From Chloroflexota bacterium (lineage in GTDB: Bacteria; Chloroflexota; UBA11872), in assembly GCA_965198185.1 (NCBI GenBank), contig CBDAOU010000001.1:370212-434211 (forward strand): a DNA stretch of 64,000 nucleotides, read 5' to 3'. Each line of letters starts with the position of its first letter. Position 1 is the first letter of the stretch. A program made the position numbers and the translations under genes. Below, piece after piece: positions 380 through 44,751 of this stretch. The notes under the pieces were generated by a model, which made no database searches, was not told the DNA's origin, and worked only from the letters and a program-made list of their open reading frames with translations.

Positions 380-1508
380 ATGCCATCCGCCCTCGAAGCC
401 GCCGACGTCCTGCAGTCCGCACGCTCGCTTTGCGACCGCGTGCGTGATTTTCGGGGGCATCTTTGACCTCGCGGCCAACGCCAAGCGCCTGGCCGAGCTG
501 GAGGCGCAAATCGCGGTGCCCGAGTTCTGGGGAGACCAGGTCCGGGCCCGCGACACCATGCGCGAGATCACGCGCCTGAAGTCGCAGATCGAGACTTGGG
601 ACGGGCTGGAAGCCGACGCGGCCGAGGTGCTTGAGCTGGCGGAGCTGGCGGACGCCGATGACGCCGACATGCTCGCCGAAGTCTCATCCGAAGCATCCGC
701 GCTGACGCGCCACCTGGACGCGCTCGAAACGCAGCTGCTGCTGGGCGGGGAATTCGACGCCCACGATGCATTCCTCTCCATCCAGTCGGGAGCGGGCGGG
801 ACGGAAAGCCAGGACTGGGTCGAGATGCTGCTTCGCATGTACTCGCGCTGGACGGAGCGGCGCAAGTACCGCGCCGCCGTGATCGACGTGTCACCCGGCG
901 AAGAGGCGGGCATCAAGAGCGCCACGCTGCAGATCGACGGCGACTTTGCCTACGGCTATCTGAAGGCCGAGCGCGGCGTGCACCGCCTCGTGCGCCAATC
1001 GCCGTTCGACGCCGGCAACCGGCGCCACACGTCATTCGCCCGCGTGGACGTGATCCCGGTGTTGGAAGAGGCCGGAGAAATCGAGATCGACCCGGCCGAC
1101 CTTCGCGTCGAGACGTTTCGGGCCGGCGGGCACGGCGGGCAGTATGTCAACAAGACCGATTCGGCGGTGCGCATCACGCATCAGCCGTCGGGCATCGTGG
1201 CGAGTTCCCAGAACCAGCGGTCGCAGCACCAGAACCGCGAGGTGGCCATGCAGGTGCTGCGCGCGCGCCTGCTGGAACGAGACTTGGCCGCCCGCGAAGC
1301 CGAACAGGTGCGACTGCGCGGCGACCTGAAAGCCGCGGACTTCGGCAGCCAGATCCGCTCGTACGTCCTGCACCCATACCGCATGGTGAAGGACGTGCGC
1401 ACCGGCGTCGAGGTCGGGAACGCGCAGGCCGTGCTGGACGGCAACCTGGATGTCTTCATCGACAGCTACCTGCGAGCAACCGTGCCGTCGACCGTGGAGC
1501 AGCAGTAG
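380..1508 (+). CDS. prfB: Peptide chain release factor 2, needs a programmed +1 frameshift
   Basis: ATG at 380 gives 28 codons ending CTT TGA C (461-467). The +1 frame continues DLAANAKRL..., with the SPF motif (LVRQSPFD) and GGQ (GGHGGQYVNKTDSAVR). Confidence 0.96.
453..467 (+). other. prfB +1 frameshift site (internal SD-like GGGGG, CAT, CTT TGA C)
   Basis: Sequence GGGGGCATCTTTGAC matches the canonical RF2 autoregulatory shift site. Confidence 0.93.
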
Positions 1509-1510
1509 CG

Positions 1511-2812
1511 ATGCGGCACGTTGTGCGAGCCCCACTTGTGGCGATGCTGGTGGCATTGGCGCTCGTCGGGGCGGCGATCGGGTCGGCGGCGGCATCCGAT
1601 CTTGAGTCGGCGGTGCTCACCGCGGACGTGGAGTTTGGCACCGGCATCACGTTTAGCCTCGAAATGCCGCACGACGCCGCGGAGCCCGCCGGCGTCGAGG
1701 TGCGCTACGGGCTCCCGGACGGCATCGTGGTCCGCCGTTCCCCGGCGGACTTTGCCGTTGCCGATGGCGTGCTCCGCGCGTCGTACGCCTGGGAACCGCG
1801 TAGCCCGCTGGTCGTCGGCACCGAGGTCGAATACCGGTTCGTCATACGTTCGGACGATGGGACGGAGGCTCGAACCGCCGCCGCAATTGCCAGCTATATC
1901 GACGCGTCGTTGCCCTGGACAACCGCCGACGAAGGCAAAGTTGAGATCTGGTATTACGCCGGCGGGGAGGCGATCGAGGCCGACGCCCGGGCCGGGATCC
2001 GCGCGGCGCTCGACATCTTGCGCGATAGTTTCGGCGCCGAGCTCGAGCGACCGACGCGGCTGATCCTCTACGCCGACATCGAGCGCATGCGTCGAGCCTT
2101 GGGCGGCGGCACCAGTCCATGGGTCGGCGGCGCCGCCATCGCCAACTTCAACGTGACCGTGCTGCATGCCCCGGCAGAAAACCGGAATCCGCTAGACCTT
2201 CAGGCCACGGTTGCGCACGAGATCACACATATCGTCCTGGAACATCGCACGGGCAACTCGTTCGGGGGCTTGCCGGCCTGGCTCCACGAGGGCCTGGCCA
2301 CCACGGTCGAGTCGGAAATCGTGGCGCGGTTCCCGTACGACGACATCATGACCCGTATCGTGGCGCAGGATGAATTCGTTTCCCTGCGCGGCATCACCGG
2401 CAGCTTCCCGGCGGCCAGTCGTGCGGCCTTGAACGCGTATGCGCAGAGCAACTCGCTGGTGGCGTACATCATCGAGACTTGGGGGCGAGAGGGCGTTGCG
2501 CAGTTGCTGGAGGCGTATGCGGGCGGAGTGTCGGACAACGAGGCCGTGCAGGCGGCCCTGGGCATCTCGCTCGAGGAGCTCGATCGCGCTTGGCTCGGAA
2601 CGTACGGCGTGGTGAGTCCATCGTTTGCGTCGCTGACTCAGTCCAGTCTCGCCGCCGTGGTGGTACCGCCGGGCGACGACGGGACACCGCCTGCCGCACC
2701 GGCGCCCTCCCTAGTTGCCGCATCGGCGGCCGCTCTTGCCGTTTTGGCAGCCGTGGCGACCATGCTCATGGTCCGGCGCGGACGCATTGCGCGCGGATAT
2801 GCTCGCTACTAA
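1511..2812 (+). CDS. Peptidase MA-like zinc metallopeptidase, signal peptide and C-terminal membrane anchor
   Basis: HExxH (AHEITH), then LPAWLHEGLA and AYAQSNSLV. Hydrophobic N- and C-termini. Confidence 0.8.
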   Translation: MRHVVRAPLVAMLVALALVGAAIGSAAASDLESAVLTADVEFGTGITFSLEMPHDAAEPAGVEVRYGLPDGIVVRRSPADFAVADGVLRASYAWEPRSPLVVGTEVEYRFVIRSDDGTEARTAAAIASYIDASLPWTTADEGKVEIWYYAGGEAIEADARAGIRAALDILRDSFGAELERPTRLILYADIERMRRALGGGTSPWVGGAAIANFNVTVLHAPAENRNPLDLQATVAHEITHIVLEHRTGNSFGGLPAWLHEGLATTVESEIVARFPYDDIMTRIVAQDEFVSLRGITGSFPAASRAALNAYAQSNSLVAYIIETWGREGVAQLLEAYAGGVSDNEAVQAALGISLEELDRAWLGTYGVVSPSFASLTQSSLAAVVVPPGDDGTPPAAPAPSLVAASAAALAVLAAVATMLMVRRGRIARGYARY

Positions 2813-2878
2813 CGTGATCCGAGACCGCACGATCCAGCATCTCTGGGCAACGATGCGTTGGCGGCGCGGGCGACGGCC

Positions 2879-3559
2879 ATGATCGTTCTGGAGGACGTGC
2901 ACAAGGTCTACCCGAACGGCACGCAAGCGCTCAACGGGGTCAGCCTTGAGATCCCCGAGCGTGACTTTGCGTTCCTGGTGGGGCCAAGCGGCGCGGGCAA
3001 GACGACCATCGTTCGGCTGATCAACCGTGATGAGACGGTGACCACGGGCAGCGTGTTCGTCGAAGCCACCGACGTGACCCGGTTGCGGCGCCGGGATGTG
3101 CCGCACCTGCGCCGGCGCGTGGGGGTTATCTATCAGGACTACAAGCTGTTGCCCTCGTTGACGGTTCGCCAAAACGTCGAGTTCGTGCTGAAAGCCACGA
3201 GCGAGTTCGATCACCTGTCCGACGGGCTGGTGGAAGAGACGCTCGCGACCGTGGGGCTTACCCGGCGAACCAACCACTACCCGCATCAACTTTCGGGAGG
3301 CGAACAGCAACGAACGGCCATTGCCCGCGCGCTTGTGCGGCGGTGTCCGATTCTGGTGGCCGACGAGCCAACGGGGAATCTCGATCAGGAATCCGGCTGG
3401 GAGACTATCCAACTGCTGGTCCAGCTCAATGCGCGGGGCACCACGGTGGTCATCGCCACCCACAACCGCACGCTGGTCGACACGATGCGACGGCGGGTGA
3501 TTGAAATCGCGCGCGGCCAGGTGGTACGGGACGAGCCTGAGGGTGGCTACGATGGCTAG
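2879..3559 (+). CDS. ftsE: Cell division ATP-binding protein FtsE
   Basis: [14 protein letters not shown], Walker [29 protein letters not shown]. Precedes ftsX. ATG 2879 preferred to TTG 2858. Confidence 0.9.
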
Positions 3560-4442
3560 GCTGCATGTCGGGCGCTACCTGCTCGGCGCAGCGCTCACGG
3601 GGATTTGGCGCAACCGCACCATGACAGGCGGCGCCATTGTCACCACGGCCATCATGCTCATCACGCTGGCCGGATTTCTGGCCATCAACGACACCCTGAA
3701 TCAGATGGTGACGGCGCTGGGACGCAAGAGCAATCTGATTGCCTATGTGCGCGACGAGGCGCGGCCCACCCAGGTGATGGCGATCATCGACGATCTGCGT
3801 ACGCGGCCCGGCGTCGGTGAAGTCCAGTTCGTATCCAAGGAGGACGCGCTTGAGATATTCGAGTCGCGGTTCGTGGATCAGCGCGACATCCTGGACGTGT
3901 TGCAGAGCAACCCGCTGCCGGCCAGTGTCGAGCTGCGCCTGAACGATCCGTCCGTCGTACCCGAGCTGGCGCAGGAGCTGCAAGGCATGCCCACGGTCTT
4001 CGACGACGTGGTGGTGCCGCTCGACGTGGTTGAAGAGGTGATCGGGATTTCCAACCTCGCCCGCGTCGCCGGGTCGGTCATCATCATCGCGCTTACCGGC
4101 GTCACGCTCTTCGTCATCGTCAATACGATTCGGATCGCCGTGTTCGCGCGGCGACAGGAAATCGAAATCATGAAGCTGGTGGGCGCCACGGATTGGTTCG
4201 TGCGCGGGCCCTTTGTGGCTGAGGGAGCGATCATCGGCGGCGTGGGCGCGGGCATTGCGGCCATCGCGCTGGTTGTGCTTTACGCCCAGGCCGCGCCGGT
4301 GGTCACACGGATCGTGTCCTTCCTTCCGGTGTCGACGGACACCGATTTCGTGCGCAACCTGGCGGTCTTCACGCTTCTCGTGGGGCTGATCGTCGGCAGC
4401 CTGGGCAGCTACTTCTCGGTTCGCCGCTACCTATCGGTGTAG
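3552..4442 (+). CDS. ftsX: Cell division permease FtsX
   Basis: Four TM segments with a large first loop (VSKEDAL, NPLPASVEL); RRQEIEIMKLVGATDWFVRGPF. ATG 3552 overlaps the end of ftsE. Confidence 0.92.
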   Translation: MARLHVGRYLLGAALTGIWRNRTMTGGAIVTTAIMLITLAGFLAINDTLNQMVTALGRKSNLIAYVRDEARPTQVMAIIDDLRTRPGVGEVQFVSKEDALEIFESRFVDQRDILDVLQSNPLPASVELRLNDPSVVPELAQELQGMPTVFDDVVVPLDVVEEVIGISNLARVAGSVIIIALTGVTLFVIVNTIRIAVFARRQEIEIMKLVGATDWFVRGPFVAEGAIIGGVGAGIAAIALVVLYAQAAPVVTRIVSFLPVSTDTDFVRNLAVFTLLVGLIVGSLGSYFSVRRYLSV

Positions 4443-7738: not shown

Positions 7739-10700
7739 CTAGGTTAGGGAGGACGCTTTTACGGACGCCGCCCGGCCGTTGGCGGCGTGGTGACCATTCA
7801 CGCCGTTTGCCGCGGCGCCGTTCAGCGACAGTGAGAGGAGGTCTGACACGCCCTCCTCCTGCATGGTCACACCGTAGATCGCGGAGGCGGACTCGACCGT
7901 GATGGCATTGTGCGTGATCACCAGGATCTGGCTGCGTTCGGACAGCCGGTGCAGCTGACGGCAGAACCGCCCCACGTTGGCATCGTCAAGCGCGGCATCG
8001 ACTTCGTCGAGCACGCAGAACGGGCTTTGGCGCACGTGAAGCAGCGCCATGATCAACGCCGTTGCCACCAGCGCGCGCTCGCCGCCGGATAGGGCCGCCA
8101 GTTCCTGCTGCCGCCGACCGGGGAGCTTGACGTGGAATTCGACGCCGGTGGTCTCCACGTCATCGGGCGCGGTGAGCACCATGGTGGCCGAGCCTCCGCC
8201 GAAGAGCTCGCGGAAGAGCCGGCTGAAGTGGGCGTTGATTGCGTCGAAAGTAGTGACGAATTGGCTATGCAGCTCCCGCTGCAGGCGGGCCGTGAGGGCC
8301 CGTAGATTCGCCTCCGCGCCTTCAAGATCGGCAATCTGCGCCCGAGCATCGTCGACGCGCGCCTGCTGCTCCCGATAGGCCTCGGGCGCCAGCGGATTCA
8401 GCGGGCCCAGCTGGGCGAGGTCGCGGCGCAAGTCGGCCGCCCGCCGTTCGACTCGTCCGAGCGGCTCGTCCAGCTGCTGTGGCGTCAGGTCGGCGAGGTC
8501 GAGATCGTCGCGCGCGGCGCGGCGCAAGTCGGCCTGCCGCTCGGCCAGCCGCTCGGTCTCACGTTGGGCGGCAGTGAGGTCATCGCCCACGCGACGCTCT
8601 TCGTCGGCCCGCTGGCCGGCCTCCAAGTACAGCCGCTGCGCGGTCAGGCGAACCTCGAGCAATTGGCGCTCCGCTTCCCGCACCGCCTCCCGCGCGGCCT
8701 CGGCCGCGACGGTGGCGTTGTCGAGTTCGGCGCCAATGGCGTCGCATTCCTCGCGGGCGGCCGTGCGCGTGGCCGCGATCTCGTCGGCGAGCGCCGCCGC
8801 CTGCTCGCGCTCGGCGGCTAGTTCTTCAAGAAGTGCCGCACGGGTGCCGTGGCGATCGCGGAGCTCGGCGACCCGCGCCGTGTCGGCCCGCTGATCGGCC
8901 GCCGCCGCCGCGTGCTCGCGCTCCAATGCCGCGAGGTCACCCGGTGCCTGGGCCGCCGTGGTCGACGCGTGCGGCAGGGCGTCGAGCGCACGCCGGACAT
9001 CCCCGCGCTCGTCCGCTAGGCGTCCCAGCTCGGCGTCCAGCGCCTTGAGACGCGCCACGGCGTGCGAACGCCGCTCCGCCAGGGTGGTTACCCGGGCCGA
9101 GAGTCGCTCCGCCTCCACCGCCGCCGCCGTGAGCGCCTCGCGGGCCGCGTTGTGGGCGGCGGTCCGCTCGGTGCGGGCCGCTTGCGCGGCATCGGCGCGC
9201 ACCACGGCTGCCTGCGCGGCTTCGGAGGCCGACTTCAGTGCTCTCGCCGAATCGTCGCGATCCCGGACCGCCTGCACAATGGCTTTGCCAATGCTCTCGA
9301 GACGTTCGGCGACGGGATCGGTGGTTGTTTCCGTCAGGCCGATCCGAATTGACCCGTCTATTTCGATGGCGGCACCGGTCAACGCCACGACCATGGGCAT
9401 CGGGCCGTTCTTGGCGTGGGCTGCGCGGACACGCAGCGCCGCATCGAGATCGGCCACCACAACAATATGTCGCAGCAGCGGCCGCAGACTGGCGTCACTG
9501 ACCTTCACGTGGGCGTCGAGGCTGCCGAGCACGTCGGGGTCCGCCCGCAATGCGTCGGAAACCGCCGGGGCCCCGGGGGCGTCGAGGAGACGCAGTCGCG
9601 CCGGAGCCAGATCCAGCGCACGAATGGCGGCGCCAGCCGCCGATACGTCGGTGGAAGCGCGAATCATCCAGTCGTCGAGCGTGTTGGCGAGCGCGGACTC
9701 CAGCAGGGGCTCATCGCGCGTGGGCGTGCCCCGCAGCATGTCGCGCAGCCGCCCAAGCACGCCGGGCACCCGCTCGCGCAGCGCCGCGTCGGACGATCCG
9801 GATTCGCGTTGCGACGACTTGGCGGTCCGCAGGGCGCGCTGCTCGGCCTGGAGGGTTGCCAGGCGGCTGGCATGGTCGGCCAGCAGACGCTCGGCGGCTG
9901 CATGGTCGTTGGCTCGCAACTGGTGCACGCCCTGCGCTGCGCTGGCTTCGGCCTCGGCCGTCTCGGCCTCGGCGGCTGCCTGCTTGACCCGCTCGCGCGC
10001 GGCCGCCGCCCGCTGCGTGCCGGCCGCAGCCTCCTGCTCCGCCACATGCTGGGCCTGCGCCAAGCTGGACTGCTCGCCGGCAAGGCGGGATTGTTCGCTT
10101 GCCAATTGTTCGGTGCGTTCCCGCAGCATCGCGTCGCGTGCGCCGAGCTCTGCCAGCTTGCTCGTGTACGCGTGCCGTGCGTCGGCCGCAGCCCGCGCAT
10201 CGGTGAGCGCGGCGGCAAGCTGAGCCAGACGCTCGGCGCGGCGTTCCGCCTGCCGCTCCAGCTCACGGCGCTTGAGGTCCTCTTGCGCGGATTCGGCCTC
10301 AAGTGCTGCCCGGCGGGCGTCAAGCACGCGCACCCGCTCGGGCAGGTCGGCGGTGCGAGCCTCGAGGTGCACCAGTCGCTCGCGCAGCTGTTGTAGACGG
10401 CCCTCAAGCGCATTCAGCGCGCGGAAGGCCTCGGTTTCTTCATCGCGGCGCTGCCGCAGCTGCGCGTCTTGGCTCTGCGCGTCGAGATCGGCTGCCGACG
10501 CTTGCCGTCGCAGCTCGTCCGCGGGTGTCGCCGTGAGCGCCGCCATGCGCCGCGCCACGGCTTGCTCGCGCTCCTCGGCTTCGGCGATTTGTCGGACGAC
10601 CGTGTCAAGCCGGTGTCGCAGCATCGCGATGCGCGCGACCCGCAACTCCGATTCGAGCTCCCGGCCTTGCTCCGCAATCTCAGCCTGGCGCCGGAGCGTC

Positions 10701-35986: not shown

Positions 35987-36083
35987 CGGCTGAGCTGGGT
36001 CGCACGCCGAGGCTTGACGAGATCGCATGGCTTGGTCACCCGCAGCGCAAGCACCGCAGGCAACAGGCGCGGCTACAGTGAGG

Positions 36084-37049
36084 TCAGCCGTCGTCGAGAC
36101 GGACGGCCGACTGTTCCCCGCGACGCCGCGTGACTCGCCGCAGCTCCCCCAAGATGCCGCCGGGGCGCAGCAGGATGACGGCGACGATGAGCACGCCGAC
36201 CATGAAGAAGCGGAGGTTCGCGTCGGCGAATTCGCCGGGCAAGAAGCGCGCGCCCACCCAGAGCCCCCACACCACGAACGCGCCCAGGATGGCGCCCAGA
36301 TTGTTGCCGGCGCCGCCAACCATGAGCATGGCCCAGATGATGAAGGTTCCGAGCAGGGGATCGAAGGTCAGCGGTGAAACAAAGCGGATGTGGTGGGCAA
36401 ACAGCGCCCCGCCGACACCCATGATGACGGCGCCGAGGACAAACGCCTGCAGCTTGAAGTTGAAGACGTTCTTGCCGCTGGCCGCGGCGGCGACCTCGTC
36501 CTCGCGGATCGCTCGCAGCACCCGGCCCCAGGGCGACTTCATGGCCCGCTGCACGACGATGAACAATGCGGCCAGGACGACGAGCACGACGACCATATAC
36601 AGATAGTTGTATTTGTCGGACGGCAGCCATCCTTCGAGGAACTGCGGGATTTGGTAGAGGCCCTTTGAGCCGTTGGCGACCCATTTCTCGTTGAGAAAGA
36701 AGAGCCTGACGCTCTCGGCGATGCCCAGCGTGGCGATGGCCAGGTAGTCGTCGTTCAGGCGCAGCGTGACGTAGCCGATGATGAGCGCGATGACGCCGCA
36801 CACCGCCCCTGCCGCCGCTAACGCCAACAGAAACCACAGGTCGATTCCGAGGTCGAGGAAGTCGAGTTGCGCCCAGTTGCCGGCAAACACGAACTCCTCA
36901 AACAGCAAGGGGTCTGCTGCCGGCGAGGTCAGGAGCGCGGCCGTGTATGCGCCGAGGGCAAAGAACCCGGCGATGCCGATGTTGAAGAGGCCCGTGAAGC
37001 CCCAGTGAACGTTCAAGCCCAGGGCGAACACCGCGTAGATGCCCGCCAT
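36084..37049 (-). CDS. livM: Branched-chain amino acid ABC permease (LivM-type); true start probably upstream
   Basis: GLFNIGIAGFFALGAY, LRLNDDYLAIATLG, SPWGRVLRAIREDE, MVGGAGN. Frame stays open and protein-like upstream; the ATG at 37104 is 1 nt out of frame. Confidence 0.85.
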   Translation of the reverse strand: MAGIYAVFALGLNVHWGFTGLFNIGIAGFFALGAYTAALLTSPAADPLLFEEFVFAGNWAQLDFLDLGIDLWFLLALAAAGAVCGVIALIIGYVTLRLNDDYLAIATLGIAESVRLFFLNEKWVANGSKGLYQIPQFLEGWLPSDKYNYLYMVVVLVVLAALFIVVQRAMKSPWGRVLRAIREDEVAAAASGKNVFNFKLQAFVLGAVIMGVGGALFAHHIRFVSPLTFDPLLGTFIIWAMLMVGGAGNNLGAILGAFVVWGLWVGARFLPGEFADANLRFFMVGVLIVAVILLRPGGILGELRRVTRRRGEQSAVRLDDG

Positions 37050-37113
37050 GACGACGAAGCCGACCCCGTAGTCGACTAGATCAATGACGTTGCTAATGGC
37101 GCATGTCTTTCTG

Positions 37114-38172
37114 TCAGTTCGACCCTCCCAAGAGGCCCCGCGGTCTGGCCAGCAGCAGAGCGATCATGATGATGAAGGCGACGGCGTGCTTGTAGCTGGG
37201 AGTGATCCACTGGGTGGAGACTTCCATGCTGACGCCAATGACCAGCGCCCCGACCAAGGCTCCGTAGGGATTGCCGATGCCGCCCAAGATCACCGCGGCG
37301 AACAGCGGAATCAGGAACTCCCAGCCCATGCTCGGCAAGAGCTGCGCCTGGAACACCGCGAGCAGGATCCCAGCGATGGCCGCCATGCCTCCCCCGATGG
37401 CCCAGGTCGACCAGATGACGCGTTCCGTCGGGATTCCGGTGACGCGAGCCAAGTCAGGATTGTCAGCCGTGGCCCGCATGGCCTTGCCGATCTTTGTGCG
37501 GGTCAGCAGCAGATATACCCCCAGGGCAAGGAGTACCGCGATGCCGGCGATGAAGATGCTGTCGGGGGGAATGCGTATGTCCATGGGCAGGTGATAGACC
37601 TGCCGCGATTCACGCGGAAATTGGAGCTTCTGACCCGTCCAAATGATCTGGATGAGGCCTCGCACGGCGATAGCTAGCCCTAGCGATGCCATGGCAATGA
37701 CGACGGCGTTGACCCGGCGGTTTCTCAGCCTGCGGAAGATCGCGACATCGAGCACGATGGCACCGACCGCGACGACGGCGGCGGCCAGTGGCAGCGCAAT
37801 GAGCAACGGGTAGCCGAAGGTGAACGGCCCCAATCCCTGCCCTTGGATTCCGATGACCGGCAGCAGATCGGTGATGATCGCGTACGCCACGTAGGCGCCC
37901 ATGGCCATGAAGTCGCCATGCGCGATGTTGGCGAAGTTCAGGTTGCCGTAGATGAGCGTGAGACCTATGGCTCCGGTCGCGATGATGGCCCCCAGCACGA
38001 AGCCGTTGACCACCAGCCCCATCTTGACGAACGGCAAGAACCCGACGCTGAGCATTACGGCAATGATCGCGGCCACGGTGTGCCCCGGCGTCCACGCCAC
38101 GCGGAGCCTCTTGGCCGCACCGTGCACGGCAATCACCGGGCGACTTCTAAGGCCGCCGCTGAGCCGGTCCAC
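37114..38172 (-). CDS. livH: Branched-chain amino acid ABC permease (LivH-type)
   Basis: NFANIAHGDF, TKIGKAMRATADN, AVILGGIGNPYGA, ARPRGLLG. Confidence 0.88.
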   Translation of the reverse strand: MDRLSGGLRSRPVIAVHGAAKRLRVAWTPGHTVAAIIAVMLSVGFLPFVKMGLVVNGFVLGAIIATGAIGLTLIYGNLNFANIAHGDFMAMGAYVAYAIITDLLPVIGIQGQGLGPFTFGYPLLIALPLAAAVVAVGAIVLDVAIFRRLRNRRVNAVVIAMASLGLAIAVRGLIQIIWTGQKLQFPRESRQVYHLPMDIRIPPDSIFIAGIAVLLALGVYLLLTRTKIGKAMRATADNPDLARVTGIPTERVIWSTWAIGGGMAAIAGILLAVFQAQLLPSMGWEFLIPLFAAVILGGIGNPYGALVGALVIGVSMEVSTQWITPSYKHAVAFIIMIALLLARPRGLLGGSN

Positions 38173-38231
38173 GTGTTTCCTTCGCGGCGGGACTCCTCAC
38201 GAGCGCGTGGCCTGGAATCCAGGGCATGGGC

Positions 38232-38936
38232 TCATCCTCCCAGATAGAGGCGGGCCACCTCGGGATTCTCCAGCAGCGCCGCTCCACGGTCCTCCAGGCG
38301 GTTTTCGCCGCCGGATAGCACGTAGCCCCGATCGGAAAGCTGCAACGCCTCCCGAGCGTGCTGCTCCACCAGCAGCAAGGACACGCCCGTCGCGTTGATG
38401 CCCTGAATGCGCTCGAACACCAGGCGCGTAACCGCCGGCGACAGCCCGGCCGACGGTTCGTCCAGCAGCAGGAGGACCGGATCGAGCATGAGGGCGCGGG
38501 CCAGAGCCAGCATCTGGCGCTGGCCTCCCGACAGGCTGCCCGCCCGAGCCTTCGGGCGCTGCGCCAAATCGGGGAACAGGTCGAACATCTGCTCGATGCG
38601 TGCCTGACCGTCGTCGCTGCGGATGAATGCGCCCATCTCCAGATTCTCGCGAATGCTCAGCGACGGAAAGACATTGGCGGACTGCGGGACGTAGCACAGT
38701 CCGGTCCGCACGACCCGTTCCGGGGGGTCCGCCGTGATGTCGGCGCCGCGGAAGGTGACGCTGCCGGTGCGCACCTGAACCAAACCCACCACGGCCTTCA
38801 TGAACGTGGATTTGCCGCAGCCGTTGGGGCCGATGATTGTCACGATCTCCCCTTGGTTCACGACCAGGGAGACGCCATGCAGGATCTCGGTTTCTCCATA
38901 TCCCGCCACGATGTCGCGGGCCTCAAGCAGCGCCAC
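38232..38936 (-). CDS. livF: Branched-chain amino acid ABC ATPase (LivF-type)
   Basis: GYGETEILHGV, GPNGCGKS, ENLEMGA, LSGGQRQM, LDEPSAGL. Confidence 0.9.
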   Translation of the reverse strand: MALLEARDIVAGYGETEILHGVSLVVNQGEIVTIIGPNGCGKSTFMKAVVGLVQVRTGSVTFRGADITADPPERVVRTGLCYVPQSANVFPSLSIRENLEMGAFIRSDDGQARIEQMFDLFPDLAQRPKARAGSLSGGQRQMLALARALMLDPVLLLLDEPSAGLSPAVTRLVFERIQGINATGVSLLLVEQHAREALQLSDRGYVLSGGENRLEDRGAALLENPEVARLYLGG

Positions 38937-39711
38937 CGACGACGCCTCCCAGATATGCCTCCAGCACTTGCGGATCGCGCTGGATCTGCCGCGGCGATCC
39001 CTCGGCGATGACCGCGCCGTTGGCCATGACGATGACCGGGTTGCAGAGACGCGTGACGAGGTCCATGTCGTGCTCGATGAGCAGAAACGTGACGCCGCGC
39101 TCGGCGCTCGCCCGCTGGATGTTGTCCGCCAGCGAGTTGAGGAGGGTGCGGTTAACACCGGCGCCCGGTTCGTCCAGCAACACCAGCCGCGGCTCCGCCA
39201 TCAGCGTCCGGGCAAGCTCCAGCAGCTTCTTTTGGCCAGTCGAGAGGTTGCCGGCGTATTCGTCGGCCAGGTGCGCAAGCTTGACGAACTCCAGCACCTC
39301 CAGCGCCTTGGCCTCGATGCGGCGCTCCTCGCGCGCGACGGTCCAGGGCGTGAGCCAGGAGGCCCAGACGCGTTCACCGCTCTGGTTCGCGGGCACGACC
39401 GCCAGGTTTTCGAGCACCGTCAGCCGCTGGAACTCTCGCGGGATCTGAAACGTGCGCATGATGCCGAGCGCAAAGGTCTGATGCATCCTTAGTCCGCTGA
39501 TGTCGCGACCGTCGCAGAGAATCTGGCCACTCGTGAGCGGCAGCGCCCCCGAGATGAGATTGAACAGCGTCGTCTTGCCCGCCCCGTTGGGACCGATGAG
39601 CCCGGTGATGGTGCCGGGCATGACCTCGAAGGAGCAGTGGTCCACGGCGCGGACGCCGCCGAAGTCCTTGACGACGTTGCGGACTTTGAGCAGTGGTGCG
39701 GTTGTCGTCAC
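38923..39711 (-). CDS. livG: Branched-chain amino acid ABC ATPase (LivG-type)
   Basis: FGGVRAVD, GPNGAGKT, RTFQI, LLDEPGAG, LIEHDM, VLEAYLG. GTG 39711 follows GGAG. Confidence 0.9.
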   Translation of the reverse strand: MTTTAPLLKVRNVVKDFGGVRAVDHCSFEVMPGTITGLIGPNGAGKTTLFNLISGALPLTSGQILCDGRDISGLRMHQTFALGIMRTFQIPREFQRLTVLENLAVVPANQSGERVWASWLTPWTVAREERRIEAKALEVLEFVKLAHLADEYAGNLSTGQKKLLELARTLMAEPRLVLLDEPGAGVNRTLLNSLADNIQRASAERGVTFLLIEHDMDLVTRLCNPVIVMANGAVIAEGSPRQIQRDPQVLEAYLGGVVGGAA

Positions 39712-40169
39712 GTCGACTCCGGCGATGCGTGGTTGGGGTGAGATATACGCGAGGCGCTCGACGAAGGCAAGCTCCCGCCGCACCAACCCTAGAAGGAGAT
39801 GGGCGTCTGGAGGATCGCCGCCGCGTCCTCCTCAACCGCATCGCGTGAGGTTAATCGGGCATCGATAAGGAATTAACCCAACGTCTATGGCTAGTCAAGA
39901 CCCCGCCTTAACCAGCGTGTGTAGGTTCTTGCTTGAGTCTAGATTGGTCGGCCTGTTTTGACGATAGACAGAACTGTCTTTGACCTGTGGCTCGGCGCTC
40001 TGTAGGTCCATTTTGGACGATAGAAAGAACCACTGAGTCCGATTTGGACGCTCGACGGCACCAAGTTCGAGAGGCGCATTGGCAGCCTGCGAATTCACAC
40101 CCATCGTGATGCGTCGGGGAGGAGGATTCCAAGTGCCTTCAGGGGTGCCGCTGCTGTTCCTTGGCCACT

Positions 40170-42188
40170 TTAGATCCAAAACCGCCACCACGAGCGGGTA
40201 GGCCCCAAGCGCCTTCCAAGGAAGGCCTCCAGACTGTTGCGGTTCAACACTGTTCTGTTGCCGCTACTCGCATCTTCATCGATGAGAGTGGATGGGACAT
40301 CCTCCCAGTCGAAGCCACGCCTCCCAAAAGCATCCCGCGGTTCCCAGACGATTATCCTGCTGCCGTCAACGGTCCAGCCGCTGGAGGCCTCACCTTCGGT
40401 TTTGCCGTAGGCTGATTTCCTGACTACACCCAAGAGGCGAGCCTTGACTCGATCATATCGCTTCTCCGCGTAGCCGACCCAGGTTACCCTCTGGCACCAG
40501 ATTGGTGGAGCGCCGACAGTATTCTCCGTCAGAATGTCGGCTAGGACTTCTGATGAAAGGGCTAGCCAGTCGTCGGGGAGACGTTCTGCGTCGATCCGGC
40601 TCATAACCTCAACTAGGTACCGCCTATACAAATGGCCCGTCAGGCCACGTCGTATCTCCTGCACACGGCCCTGAAGACGTTGGCGTAACTCTTCAGCATG
40701 GGCGGGCAAGGCAGTCGTCGTATATACCATCATGCTCCGCTTAACTATCTCGTCGGGAAACGATTGAGGCTCCGCGTTCATGGACAGAATGAACCCGGGG
40801 TACTCGGAGACGGCTGGCTGCAACTCGTCCTTGATCATGTCCCGGCCGTGACGATTGAACGCGGTTCGTCCAATATCATCGAACACGACGGGGAAGCGCT
40901 TGTAGCCGTGCTGTAATCCACGCAGCTGGGCCGTGGTGAAGCTCCGCTTGTCCAGCGTATGCGCAAAACCAAACATAGAGGTCATCAGAGTATCTACAAG
41001 GCTGGTCTTGCCGCAGTTGGACTTGCCAAACACTATGGCGAATGAGGGGTAACGAATGACGTCGCTGTCCTGCAGTAGGGCAAGGGAGCGAAGGTCACAC
41101 AAGAAAGGCGAGAAGTACAGCCAGGACATCAACGTGAAGTAGTCGTGCTGAAGTCTCGTAACGTTCCCCTCGAAGGCACCTTCGTAGTTCCTAAAGTAGT
41201 CGAACAGGAGCTCCGAATCACGCCTAACCAGCGAGCCATCCCACTCCAGTGAGAACGGCTCACCGGACAGCAAAGAAGTGTGATTTATCCTGTCGATGGA
41301 AAGGTAGCGACTGTCCGCCTCCTCAACGGACTTGACCAAGCGTATCCGGCTTATTTCCCGCTTGATTTCGGGAGTAATCGTCTGTCTACCGTTGCGAACG
41401 GCCGGTAGAGCACCAGATAGGCGCGGCCCCAACACGGCTGCGATCTTCTCGATACGCTCAATCTGCACCGGAGAAGACATCTGTGATTCTGAGGTTGTTG
41501 GTGCTTGGATGACGACCGTTCCATCTTCCGACATGATGGGGGTAGCGGAAACCTCTATCTCTGCATTGGTTATGCGCTCTTCCGGCAGCGGCACTTCGTC
41601 CGAAGCGGCGTCCCTGATTTCATCGAACATCCGATTGTAGTGGTTCCATGCTGCCTCGTCGTTGTCAAAGACGACCAGGGTTTCGGGCTGGTTCCCCGAG
41701 AAGGCTTGTTCGGACAGATTGGCGGAGCCGATGACTACACGCCTGCGTCCGTCCCTCCCCGAAAGAAGGTAGAGCTTTGCGTGGGCAATTGACTTTCTCA
41801 GGACTCTGAAATGGGCCTGGCCGGCATGAACCTTTTCGAGAATGCGGATGTGCCGTTCGTCCTTCAGTCCCATGATGGCAGCCCGGGTGTCCCCGACCAC
41901 TACCTTCTGAAATGCAAGGATGCTCCTAATCTCGCGCAGCGTCCCTTCGTATCCAAACACGCACTCGAAGGTCTCGAATGAATAGTTGTCCAACATCCTG
42001 ACGATGGCGTTCGTGCTTGCAGAGTATGTGAGGACCCGCAGGCTGGAATAACCTTCGAATAAAGCCCAGCTGAACTTTCTCTCACCTGCGAAGCTGGCGC
42101 GAACTACTCGTAGGCCGGTTCCGTCGTCTAATTCGAATGCCGATTGGCTGTCGGATTCTCCATTCGCTCCCGGCGATGATGGATTCAT
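40170..42188 (-). CDS. PLD-superfamily nuclease fused to a P-loop NTPase (candidate defence protein)
   Basis: HAKLY...IGSANLS...NQPE single PLD half-site; Walker A GKSNCGKT and Walker B VVFDD; GGAG RBS before the ATG. Confidence 0.8.
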   Translation of the reverse strand: MNPSSPGANGESDSQSAFELDDGTGLRVVRASFAGERKFSWALFEGYSSLRVLTYSASTNAIVRMLDNYSFETFECVFGYEGTLREIRSILAFQKVVVGDTRAAIMGLKDERHIRILEKVHAGQAHFRVLRKSIAHAKLYLLSGRDGRRRVVIGSANLSEQAFSGNQPETLVVFDNDEAAWNHYNRMFDEIRDAASDEVPLPEERITNAEIEVSATPIMSEDGTVVIQAPTTSESQMSSPVQIERIEKIAAVLGPRLSGALPAVRNGRQTITPEIKREISRIRLVKSVEEADSRYLSIDRINHTSLLSGEPFSLEWDGSLVRRDSELLFDYFRNYEGAFEGNVTRLQHDYFTLMSWLYFSPFLCDLRSLALLQDSDVIRYPSFAIVFGKSNCGKTSLVDTLMTSMFGFAHTLDKRSFTTAQLRGLQHGYKRFPVVFDDIGRTAFNRHGRDMIKDELQPAVSEYPGFILSMNAEPQSFPDEIVKRSMMVYTTTALPAHAEELRQRLQGRVQEIRRGLTGHLYRRYLVEVMSRIDAERLPDDWLALSSEVLADILTENTVGAPPIWCQRVTWVGYAEKRYDRVKARLLGVVRKSAYGKTEGEASSGWTVDGSRIIVWEPRDAFGRRGFDWEDVPSTLIDEDASSGNRTVLNRNSLEAFLGRRLGPTRSWWRFWI

Positions 42189-42287
42189 TTGGCTCCCCCG
42201 TGTATAGCTTGAAGGCGGGTGAAGTTCGGTTGCTGTGGTTCCGCGGACGATCCGCGCGCCAATGCGGTAGGCCTAGCACGCTCGCCG

Positions 42288-43163
42288 TCAGACCCGCTGG
42301 TGATGCTCTTGGTCAATCCTGCCGACATGATCAAAATGAGGATCTGGAATACTTCGGTAGACATCAAGCACCTCGTCGGCAAGATCAAACCGTTCAGTCA
42401 AGATGTCTATTGCGGCTTGAGTGATTAGGGAAGCGCATGCTGCGACTGCTGTGGGTGGCGCGTTGTTGACTGGCACCGAGCATCCCAGTTGAGGGGCCGA
42501 TGGTTCCTCGCTATCGTCCCCAGCGGGAATAGCTGGATAGTGCGTTAGGTCCCCACGCTGGTTAATCGGTGTATCGCTAGGCAACGCCTGCCGCTGCACC
42601 CGGCCAATGGGGCCGCCTCGATATAACGCTCCTGAGACAAGAGGCTTGTCCATGTCCTTTGTGATCATAGCTAACGAGAGAGTCAGAGCTTCACTGCCTG
42701 TCGTATCTATGACGATGTTGGCGTCTCCTACACGCTCCCTTACTTGGCTTGGCGTGCGAGGGGATTCCTGGACGCCGTTGACTTCGGTCCAGGGTGCATG
42801 GCCCTTGACCACGGCCCTGACCGCCTGCACCTTGGATGCGCCCACCTAGTCGTAGCCAGCCACGTGTCTCACCACGTTGCCAGGTAACAGGACGTCGGGA
42901 TCGACGATGTCCAGGAACCTCAACCCGCTTTCGGCAAGAAGGGTCGCCGTGTGCCCACCCAGAGCCCCTGCCCCGAACAAAACTGCCTTGCGAGTATGTA
43001 GGATCGGGGCGTCGGGTCCTGCCCGTAGAACAAGGCTGTGCTCATCGTTGGGCCCTGGTTGCATCGCGAATGCCTCCACTTGATCTCCCGTTCCTTTGCA
43101 CGCCATCACTAACAGGTCTGTTCGACCGTACCGTGGGGACCAAAACGCGGTTCGAATCTTAGA
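42288..43163 (-). pseudogene. ThiF/E1-like adenylyltransferase, 5'-truncated, with in-frame TAG
   Basis: LRAGP, GAGALGG, DPDVLLPGNVVRH, then TAG (42846-42848), VGASKV, IDTTG, GCSVPVNNAPP. Frame runs to the tRNA end with no native start. Confidence 0.82.
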
Positions 43164-43240
43164 TGGTGGGCGCGAGGGGACTCGAACCTCTGACCTCCAC
43201 GATGTCAACGTGGCGCTCTAACCAGCTGAGCTACGCGCCC
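43164..43240 (-). tRNA. tRNA-Val (GAC)
   Basis: 77-nt cloverleaf GGGCGCGTAGCTCAGCTGGTTAGAGCG-CCACG-TTGACAT-CGTGG-AGGTCAGAGGTTCGAGTCCCCTCGCGCCCACCA with encoded CCA. Confidence 0.97.
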
Positions 43241-43433
43241 GCGGCTCGGCTCGACCCGCGTGGTGGCGTCAGCATACTTCAGCGGCCTGCGGCGTCCCTG
43301 CTGCGGGCGGTGGGTAACTCTGCTTACTTCGGCATGCGTCCGGCGGAAGCGTTCTTGCCGAGCACCCTCACTCCCTGGTGAAGCCAGGGCCGGGCTGAAA
43401 CCTCCAAGAGGCTTTTCCTGACCCTGGAGAGGC

Positions 43434-44702
<1,269 letters not shown>

Positions 44703-44751
44703 TAGGCGCGCGGCGCATACTTGGGACGCCCGCGAGCGGGAATCTGCACGC

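Follow-up and report, generated by a model that had tools for sequence, protein, structure and literature searches.

What does the one intact gene of a decaying genomic islet encode, and can such a gene be expected to work by itself? We addressed this question in a stretch of 64,000 nucleotides from a Chloroflexota bacterium (GenBank assembly GCA_965198185.1, contig CBDAOU010000001.1, positions 370,212 to 434,211), hereafter the window. An islet of lower GC content lies there beside a tRNA-Val and contains a single intact gene, for a protein of 672 aa. A preliminary description, made from the letters of the DNA, had read the product as an orphan fusion of a phospholipase D (PLD) nuclease with a P-loop NTPase and had proposed it as a candidate anti-phage system. 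We refer to the gene as the PLD-SF3 gene (SF3, helicase superfamily 3). From its sequence, its predicted fold and its likeness to known enzymes, we give a probability of roughly one half to the reading that it encodes an autonomous nuclease, a single polypeptide that would depend on nucleoside triphosphates (NTPs) and act against foreign DNA such as phages and plasmids.

A predicted nuclease joined to an SF3/MCM-like helicase module

The open reading frame (ORF) is intact, as had been described, and runs from an ATG to a TAA behind a good ribosome-binding site (Table 1). Its N-terminal domain carries one PLD half-site of the Nuc/BfiI/NgoFVII type, composed of HAK, GSANLS and E169, and has a Ser at position 143, where lipase-type PLDs have the Asp of the HKD motif. 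This assignment had been made before, and two Pfam matches over residues 110–191 now back it by passing their curated thresholds: PLDc_2 (29.4 bits; cut-off 27) and RE_NgoFVII, the N-terminal PLD domain of NgoFVII (26.8 bits; cut-off 23.8). Translation likewise reproduced the Walker A and Walker B motifs previously noted in the C-terminal half. In an alignment with 40 homologues of 23–66% identity, the PLD residues H136, K138, S155, N157, S159 and E169 were invariant, and so were the NTPase residues G388, G393, K394, D438, N471 and R484. Because the catalytic residues are invariant down to 23% identity, the motifs are not chance matches.

The NTPase half has the complete set of SF3 motifs (G388xxxxGK394T, hhhD437D438, S-M-N471 and R484), all of them invariant, with R484 placed 13 residues after the sensor-1-like N471. 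In two SF3 helicases, the large T antigen of simian virus 40 (SV40 LTag) and papillomavirus E1, approximately 11–15 residues separate motif C from the arginine finger. N471 and R484 are spaced in the same way. The fusion proposed in the preliminary description thus stands, with the amendment that its NTPase is an SF3/MCM-like helicase module and not a generic P-loop. The accompanying remark that DEAD-helicase motifs are missing is literally true but misleading, since the module is of a helicase type.

An AlphaFold2 model was computed from 36 sequences, with a mean predicted local distance difference test score (pLDDT) of 71 and a predicted template modelling score (pTM) of 0.54. Confidence was high at residues ~300–660 (pLDDT 80–95) and moderate in the PLD domain, and residues 204–293 were disordered. 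When the model was compared with the PDB by Foldseek, the best match was the Cch helicase of the staphylococcal cassette chromosome SCCmec (5dgk; E 1e-6, 420 aligned columns), and further matches were the PLD domain of R.NgoAVII, SauUSI, poxvirus D5/E5, the PrimPol of African swine fever virus and papillomavirus E1. The match to R.NgoAVII (4rct; E 1.7e-4, 170 columns, root-mean-square deviation 5.7) was confined to the PLD half (170/347 residues); that to SauUSI (7clg) had an E-value of 5e-4. Against viral models there were 51 matches with E ≤ 1e-3, nearly all of them to phage or virus primase-helicases (DUF927, D5, PriCT, RepB and parvovirus NS1). The part that matches Cch, D5/E5, E1 and the phage primase-helicases is the C-terminal ~400 residues, with an identity of only 10–14%. 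Motifs and model together give a predicted architecture of a single-HKD PLD nuclease, a flexible linker of ~90 residues, a collar with an SF3/MCM-like ATPase, and a C-terminal winged-helix-like domain.

Survival of the gene in the stump of a CBASS island

The islet, at ~39.8–43.1 kb, has a GC content of 55–58%, vs 62–75% on either side. The PLD-SF3 gene is its only intact gene, as the preliminary description had said: ORFs 42846..43208 and 42288..42845, which lie upstream of it, share one frame and together make up a truncated gene with a TAG between them at 42846..42848. This stop replaces Gln334 and aligns with a CAA codon in two homologous loci, L001 and L004 (homologous loci are denoted by L numbers). 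The two ORFs match positions 239–516 of 523 in the PADLOC E1-E2 profile PDLC00847 (E 1e-32 and 2e-62), and the remnant corresponds to residues ~235–519 of Cap2, a component of type II cyclic-oligonucleotide-based antiphage signalling systems (CBASS).

Positions 39935–43134 of the window share 91.5% DNA identity with L001 9054..12241, from a metagenome-assembled genome (MAG) of Dehalococcoidia (L001 = L005). There the array is intact and consists of a helix-turn-helix (HTH) gene, an M78 peptidase gene (the two being CapH/CapP-like), a patatin, a SMODS nucleotidyltransferase of the cGAS/DncV-like class (CD-NTase), a 519-aa Cap2 and, last, the PLD-SF3 gene; the CBASS operon is intact in L004 as well. 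The window itself lacks a CD-NTase, an effector and an intact Cap2, and hence a type II CBASS operon. Judged by this DNA identity, the islet is the 3′ stump of such an operon, so the term "orphan" has to be given up, and the decayed neighbour, which had gone unrecognised, is Cap2. The PLD-SF3 gene came to the tRNA-Val of the window as the terminal gene of a type II CBASS island, which was later cut down to half of Cap2.

Two further loci have lost their CBASS. In L081 the order is ammonium transporter, PALP enzyme, tRNA-Val, stump, PLD-SF3 gene and Liv ABC transporter. Its flanks are 82–94% identical to those of the window and the tRNA/Cap2 junction is common to both; a further 655 bp of the stump are gone in L081, and the PLD-SF3 gene is intact. 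A metagenome scan anchored on the LivF-like gene, for empty or full tRNA-Val/LivF sites, returned nothing closer than 66% identity. What is left in the CBASS-free L006, whose protein is 87% identical, is the PLD-SF3 gene with the 100-nt intergenic region and 28 nt from the end of Cap2; this locus lost CBASS at a breakpoint other than that of the window and L081. Since these breakpoints differ, the CBASS island was eroded at least two times independently, and the PLD-SF3 gene survived each time. That the island eroded in three lineages, independently in at least two cases, and that this gene alone was kept each time argues that the gene works by itself. The locus is therefore a natural experiment, in which the island eroded and the PLD-SF3 gene was kept, and a good candidate for experiments.

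L080 (95% identity) shows the island eroded or rearranged in another way, with a shortened Cap2 of 435 aa, an antisense ORF call that overlaps it, and no HTH-M78 pair (654..2144, 8319..9905); upstream lie an SMC_N/AAA_23 gene and a further gene of the ThiF family. The setting of L001 looks like an integrative conjugative element, with serine recombinase, relaxase and TraG-like genes downstream, and upstream of its CBASS operon (831..3812) is a gene for a 993-aa protein with an AAA_16/ORC-CDC6-like NTPase, TPR and SMODS domains.

Selection after the loss of CBASS

The ratio of nonsynonymous to synonymous substitution rates (dN/dS) was calculated by the method of Nei and Gojobori. Between the window and L081, both CBASS-less (dS 0.117), the PLD-SF3 gene had a dN/dS of 0.157; in comparisons against and among L001, L004 and L080 the ratio was 0.08–0.13, and in five flanking housekeeping genes it was 0.075–0.18. 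By these ratios the gene is under purifying selection, within the housekeeping range, where CBASS has been lost, in agreement with the earlier proposal that it is selected while its neighbour decays. For the Cap2 stump dN/dS was 0.16–0.22, vs 0.16 for an intact pair of Cap2 genes. As the ratio of the stump is barely raised, its inactivation is recent relative to its divergence.

For the comparison with L081 we used window segments 36082..42288 and 42944..43310. The islet (tRNA, stump and gene) is ~96% identical between the two loci, vs 82–94% for the flanks (dS 0.12 vs 0.23–0.59). This excess of similarity suggests either a later recombinational exchange of the islet or a slower synonymous change within it.

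The link to CBASS takes two unrelated forms. In the first, the PLD-SF3 gene follows Cap2 on the same strand at ~100 nt (L001/L005, L004 and L080, and as stumps in the window, L081 and L006). In the second, seen at 77% identity in L002 and L010, the patatin and CD-NTase genes form an operon that diverges from an HTH-M78-PLD-SF3 array with only 24 nt between the M78 gene and the PLD-SF3 gene. Canonical capH-capP pairs lie upstream of an immune operon, on the opposite strand, with a shared promoter region; CapH/CapP de-repress immune operons upon DNA damage and accompany diverse defence systems (10.1101/2022.04.27.489752). Since the layout of L002 and L010 matches the canonical one, the gene would appear to ride on the transcript of the regulators.

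Both placements, behind Cap2 in one clade and behind capH-capP beside a differently arranged CBASS in another, are what one would expect of a CBASS component, a second effector or an accessory, that is left over without function in the window. We consider such a role very unlikely, since the operons concerned already encode a patatin effector, scans of the protein with Pfam, PADLOC and NCBIfam detected no cyclic-nucleotide sensor domain (SAVED, STING or CARF-like), and purifying selection has persisted after CBASS was lost from the window, L081 and L006. Moreover, CBASS genes occur within 10 kb at only ~4–5 of ~68 loci, a scarcity by which, together with the persisting selection, an obligate CBASS component was ruled out. 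Type II CBASS (CD-NTase, patatin CapV, Cap2 and CapH/CapP) was the genomic vehicle of the window's clade, and most members of the family are unlinked to it.

A widespread, accessory and mobile family

The family comprises >1000 proteins in a collection clustered at 90%; at 50% identity there are 855 clusters with E ≤ 1e-3 and 218 with E ≤ 1e-30, and the full-length architecture is retained to ~27% identity. The precomputed Pfam label is PF27394 (Aq_aa27). NCBI names the members "NgoFVII family restriction endonuclease" or "restriction endonuclease PLD domain-containing protein", and the former label is misleading and due for revision. Members are spread over Chloroflexota, Proteobacteria, Deinococcota, Campylobacterota and gut bacteria. 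A scan for close relatives with one genome per species found the gene in 68 of 185,579 species' genomes, in single copy in each. Nearly all of these 68 loci are in Chloroflexota MAGs (Dehalococcoidia/SAR202 and Caldilineaceae), and the remainder are in one Longimicrobiales and two gammaproteobacteria. GC content was >2 points below that of the flanks in 45/67 loci, and an insertion, a frameshift or a stop interrupts at least 10 of the 68 copies.

In the window and L081 a tRNA-Val is found immediately upstream of the gene and on its strand, and in L029 and L062 a tRNA-Ala takes this place, which fits an arrival on tRNA-targeting islands that later decayed. The tRNA-Ala genes are at L029 2235..2310 and L062 9727..9802, a fragment resembling a tRNA 3′ end is at L006 ~9745..9770, and the distance to the gene is 130–370 nt.

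On plasmids of Acetobacter, Komagataeibacter and Arcobacter, homologues of ~27% identity occur as solitary genes in regions for accessory functions or stability, where toxin-antitoxin genes surround them or ParAB lies next to them; a copy disrupted by an insertion sequence (IS) is found on a Thermus plasmid. Each of the former plasmids has its own separate Rep, by which a plasmid replication initiator was ruled out. No phage homologue was found by tblastn in 50,697 phage records, and a PHROG search with the protein gave zero matches; a phage gene was ruled out on these grounds. In a group of ~41% identity, the gene stands by itself within a PhyH cluster in one instance and within a cobalamin cluster in another. 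At the same identity, in L078 (6353..12960) and L079, three unannotated genes (424, 388 and 371 aa) precede it in an array that resembles an operon, and it runs 10 nt into a downstream CoiA_N gene; AbiEii, MazE/PIN, toxin-antitoxin and CRISPR Cse2 genes are near. This array may be a multi-gene version of the PLD-SF3 system. A subfamily of 26% identity occurs as near-identical copies on >50 contigs; in L162–L165 (12146..13135) its gene is followed by a wHTH-WYL-WCX regulator of the BrxR/CapW type and preceded by a block of genes for single-stranded DNA-binding protein (SSB), a sigma factor and AAA_5+VWA. Some members depart from the common architecture: the 790-aa protein P0271 (L076/L077 10001..12373) has an internal tandem duplication of query ~342–471, including the Walker A region, and a distant branch of ~750–765 aa (P0162, P0163, P0167, P0205 and P0235) has an extra N-terminal excisionase/MerR-like HTH of ~60 residues.

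The neighbour survey covered the 132 nearest and 127 second-nearest genes (259) of 66 loci. When all ORFs within 10 kb were clustered, no conserved neighbour emerged, and contexts agreed only inside small syntenic groups. Contexts switch between close relatives and are steady within host lineages, including several SAR202/Dehalococcoidia lineages. Scattered among the neighbours are Cap2, SMODS, GmrSD, PIN, recombinases, mad3, PDC-S03 and AriA-like genes. In conclusion, the PLD-SF3 gene is an accessory, horizontally mobile and often decaying gene.

Mobility of this kind raises the alternative that the protein serves a mobile element, in replication or mobilisation, or is itself a selfish element of one gene: through a covalent phospho-histidine intermediate, the PLD domain would nick DNA and perhaps join it again, and the SF3 module would be a self-loading replicative motor, as in HUH-SF3 Rep proteins, Cch and the primase-helicases. 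Such a protein would explain why Cch of SCCmec, D5/E5, the DUF927/PriCT primase-helicases and parvovirus NS1 rank as the best structural matches, and it would suit the solitary insertions, foreign in GC and far from any recombinase, in unrelated operons, the HTH of the distant members, the carriage on plasmids and beside element-like blocks with SSB and sigma factor, and the 19-nt direct repeats downstream of the gene in the window's clade. However, an element would hardly be present in one copy in 68/68 genomes, with repeats that are specific to one clade, with no shared flanking sequence or termini outside syntenic groups and with stable synteny within host lineages. The separate Rep genes of the carrier plasmids, the absence from phage records and the lack of linkage to integrases, primases and polymerases in the neighbour survey speak against it as well. 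We therefore regard the mobile-element reading as unlikely, although it is the strongest of the rivals weighed here. An IS-like transposon in particular was ruled out by the single copy per genome and the lack of conserved flanks or termini beyond syntenic groups.

Comparison with known systems

The libraries consulted were PADLOC v2 (2023), NCBIfam (2026), Pfam, PHROGs and the literature, and in none of them did the protein match a named system. The preliminary description had asked whether the protein belongs to a named system: it had no full-length significant match to any PADLOC v2 or NCBIfam system, and its NCBIfam scores were far below the cut-offs. The best PADLOC match was ZacB (E 1.7e-6 over 57 residues, 136–192), followed by PLD_Helicase (9e-4) and DrmC (7e-3), and none of the partner genes of Mokosh, Azaca, DISARM or PLD-helicase systems lies beside the PLD-SF3 gene. 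The literature searches found nothing on the Aq_aa27 family and nothing relevant linking NgoFVII to defence, the nearest candidate paper mentioning only M.NgoFVII; on SF3 helicases in defence systems they found only virus and mobile-element papers.

SauUSI, NgoAVII and CglI are PLD nucleases driven by NTP-dependent motors. The type IV, ATP-dependent SauUSI (PDB 7clg) resembles the PLD-SF3 protein in being a single polypeptide with an N-terminal PLD domain, an NTP-driven motor and a C-terminal recognition-type domain, and in having no methyltransferase partner. However, its motor is of SF2 and its C-terminus is an SRA-like reader of 5-methylcytosine and 5-hydroxymethylcytosine, whereas the motor of the PLD-SF3 protein is SF3/MCM-like and presumably ring-forming, and the two proteins have zero sequence-level similarity.

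The nuclease itself is of the type of NgoAVII, CglI, NgoFVII and BfiI, with a single HxK...GSxN...E half-site, as judged from the RE_NgoFVII and fold matches. Enzymes of this type have metal-independent chemistry and dimerise obligately, and NgoAVII and CglI reportedly need NTP hydrolysis. They differ from the PLD-SF3 gene in possessing a B3-like domain, a separate N-protein ATPase (NgoAVII and CglI) and a cognate methyltransferase. The NCBI name, the Pfam match and the R.NgoAVII fold could all belong to an ordinary restriction endonuclease of the NgoFVII/NgoAVII type after the loss of its cognate C5-methyltransferase, but we hold this to be extremely improbable. Similarity to NgoFVII/NgoAVII is limited to the PLD core, and neither a B3-like DNA-binding domain in the protein nor an adjacent gene for an N-protein was found. 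There is no methyltransferase in the window or within 10 kb in L081, as had been stated for the near surroundings. The wider check suggested at the time gave the same picture: no DNA methyltransferase family, C5 or other stand-alone type, recurs among the 259 neighbours, two Eco57I-type fused enzymes excepted. Moreover, an orphan restriction enzyme would kill a host left unprotected, whereas selection has conserved this gene. The lack of a methyltransferase partner among these neighbours was the ground on which an orphan restriction-modification enzyme was ruled out.

The helicase half has its counterparts in SCCmec Cch, poxvirus D5/E5 and phage DUF927/PriCT proteins (5dgk, 8hwc, 8xj6), which share the collar, the SF3/MCM-like ATPase and the winged helix and, in overall logic, the succession of catalytic N-terminal domain, linker and SF3 helicase. 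In those proteins, however, the N-terminal domain is a primase or non-catalytic and the genes lie amid replication and integration genes of mobile elements, whereas here the N-terminal domain is a predicted nuclease and the gene is solitary.

As anti-phage modules, type II Mokosh (MkoC) and Azaca (ZacABC) likewise join a PLD nuclease with an NTPase or helicase. Their PADLOC matches to our protein, however, cover only ~57–100 residues of the PLD core, and their motors are of SF1/SF2 type. The combination of PLD nuclease and NTPase is an established defence design, Azaca and Mokosh being examples, and Mokosh II is also single-gene (10.1101/2025.07.10.664194). The PLD-SF3 gene is no categorical novelty; it fits a known theme, to which ATP-dependent PLD restriction enzymes and modules of a nuclease plus an NTPase belong. 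What is new is the SF3/MCM-like motor, of a class belonging to mobile-element and virus replication, together with a strictly single-gene, methyltransferase-free lifestyle.

Proposed mode of action and points against it

Single-HKD PLD nucleases such as Nuc and BfiI are dimers, because a second copy is needed for one active site; they act through a phospho-histidine intermediate and use no metal. SF3/MCM-like helicases form hexameric rings on DNA. Following these precedents, the helicase module of the PLD-SF3 protein would assemble into a ring, as in Cch, D5 and E1, and the ring would load on DNA or translocate along it through NTP hydrolysis. The tethered PLD domains would then dimerise and cut the DNA in a metal-independent manner, via a phospho-histidine intermediate. 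Since no methyltransferase companion is present, self DNA would be spared by some other rule. Recognition might depend on modification, as in type IV systems; loading might be restricted to structures specific to the invader (free ends, replication intermediates or single-stranded DNA); or transcription might be tightly controlled, the gene lying behind CapH/CapP or beside a WYL regulator in some loci, both of them DNA-damage-responsive.

More tentatively, and with odds somewhat below even, the gene may be the founding example of a widespread and unrecognised single-gene immune system, in which fusion to a PLD nuclease made the SF3/MCM-like ring helicase of viruses and mobile elements a weapon against them. 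To the same tentative degree, this proposal includes loading on invader DNA or replication intermediates, paired PLD cuts, and damage-sensing regulators (CapH/CapP, WYL) in some hosts. If the PLD-SF3 gene does serve defence, it would be a compact nuclease-motor system in one gene, built on an SF3/MCM-like class of helicase that was unreported in bacterial immunity in the literature searched. It would also show clearly how a replication module passed from mobile elements into host defence, or in the opposite direction, and would bear on the "guns for hire" traffic between the two.

Several points weigh against an autonomous nuclease directed at foreign DNA. The SF3 assignment comes from fold and motifs: Pfam RNA_helicase (PF00910, SF3) matches residues 385–464 with E 0.002 and 19 bits, below the cut-off of 21.5, and solved structures in the PDB gave zero sequence-level match by single sequence or by profile. 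The AlphaFold2 model is only of moderate overall confidence, and the nearest structural relatives of the helicase module are mobile-element replication proteins rather than defence motors. The oligomeric state and the rule for telling self from non-self are ones that we purely infer, and function across the family is predicted from sequence, fold and context. Enrichment in defence islands is weak in the Chloroflexota clade, with few defence-type matches among the 132 immediate neighbours (Cap2, mad3, PDC-S03 and AriA, two each, as raw counts). Other immunity-type neighbours, namely GmrSD, HEPN-MNT, AbiEii, toxin-antitoxin genes, Cse2 and the BrxR/CapW-type WYL-WCX regulator, occur at a minority of loci. 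The surveyed neighbours are mostly metabolic or transport proteins, and an anti-phage role is likewise something that we infer for a gene whose homologues mostly lie amid metabolic genes and not in defence islands.

Such surroundings would be natural for a chromosomal enzyme of DNA repair or maintenance, acting for example at stalled forks or on DNA adducts and taking no part in genetic conflict. The synteny kept in several SAR202/Dehalococcoidia lineages, a purifying selection as strong as that on the flanking housekeeping genes and the coupling to DNA-damage-responsive regulators at some loci would be equally at home there. A maintenance enzyme would not, however, be expected to have so patchy a distribution, a consistently foreign GC content, frequent pseudogenes, carriage on plasmids and contexts that change between close relatives, and we judge this role to be quite unlikely. 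The probability that is left after the autonomous nuclease and the four rivals falls to something else.

Features of the islet and its surroundings

The features of the locus are listed in Table 1.

Table 1. Features of the PLD-SF3 gene, the islet and the adjoining DNA (window coordinates)
Feature	Position	Strand	Basis or remark
PLD-SF3 gene, 672 aa, ATG start, TAA stop	40170..42188	-	ORF list; >1000 full-length homologues; family PF27394 (Aq_aa27)
Ribosome-binding site GGGGGAG	42193..42199	-	4 nt before ATG; kept in L001, L080, L081
Predicted PLD nuclease domain, ~aa 40-200, single HxK...GSxNxS...E half-site	41589..42071	-	Pfam, conservation, Foldseek
HAK (H136, K138)	41775..41783	-	Translation of sub-range
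GSANLS (G154-S-A-N157-L-S159)	41712..41729	-	Translation of sub-range
E169, downstream Glu of nuclease branch	41682..41684	-	Translation of sub-range
Predicted disordered linker, aa 204-293 (~90 residues)	41310..41579	-	AlphaFold2 pLDDT <50; poorly conserved, indel-rich in 40-homologue alignment
Collar-like N-terminal helicase region and SF3-type ATPase core (predicted), aa 294-500	40689..41309	-	Invariant residues, weak Pfam, Foldseek
Walker A GKSNCGKT	41004..41027	-	Translation of sub-range
Walker B VVFDD	40875..40889	-	Translation of sub-range
Sensor-1 N471	40776..40778	-	Invariant in homologues
Arg-finger-like R484	40737..40739	-	Invariant in homologues
Helical lid and C-terminal alpha/beta (winged-helix-like) domain, basic-aromatic tail RSWWRFWI	40173..40688	-	AlphaFold2 confident for residues 500-660; Cch alignment 420 columns
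Upstream non-coding, ~100 nt between Cap2 stop and ATG	42189..42290	-	Kept in L001, L004, L080, L081 and CBASS-free L006
Downstream non-coding islet end, 235 bp	39935..40169	-	Homology to L001, L004, L080 stops at 39935-39945
Three 19-nt direct repeats, gene-sense GTTCTNTCTATCGTC...	39956-39974, 40012-40030, 40043-40061		Within downstream non-coding 235 bp
Cap2 (E1-E2) pseudogene, C-terminal ~285 codons, N-terminus missing	42291..43134	-	PADLOC, DNA identity to L001
tRNA-Val(GAC)	43164..43240	-	ARAGORN; Rfam tRNA 67 bits; islet starts ~30 nt past its 3′ end; same junction in L081
IS110-family insertion, 1395 bp, frameshifted transposase	43311..44705	+	Pfam; absent from syntenic L081

The non-coding DNA between the Cap2 stop and the PLD-SF3 gene possibly holds the gene's own promoter or operator; a scan of the islet, including this segment, for the sigma-70 consensus found no site. 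An Rfam scan of the islet returned the tRNA alone. The 19-nt repeats on the other side of the gene are kept in L001 and L004 and in no other clade, and they may form a site for a regulator or one of iteron type, or be meaningless.

Beyond the tRNA, the IS110-family insertion has a GC content of 70–75%, and its transposase is read in two frames, with DEDD_Tnp_IS110 in ORF 43479..44705 and Transposase_20 in ORF 44153..44683. The insertion is a later event at the locus and lies outside the PLD-SF3 system.

At the end of the PLD-SF3 gene itself, a terminator-like hairpin with a T-run (40182..40197, minus strand) overlaps the last codons. The protein end encoded there is conserved in its basic-aromatic character across the family, as in RSWWRFWI, SRWWRLSR, RAWWPWRL and similar sequences.

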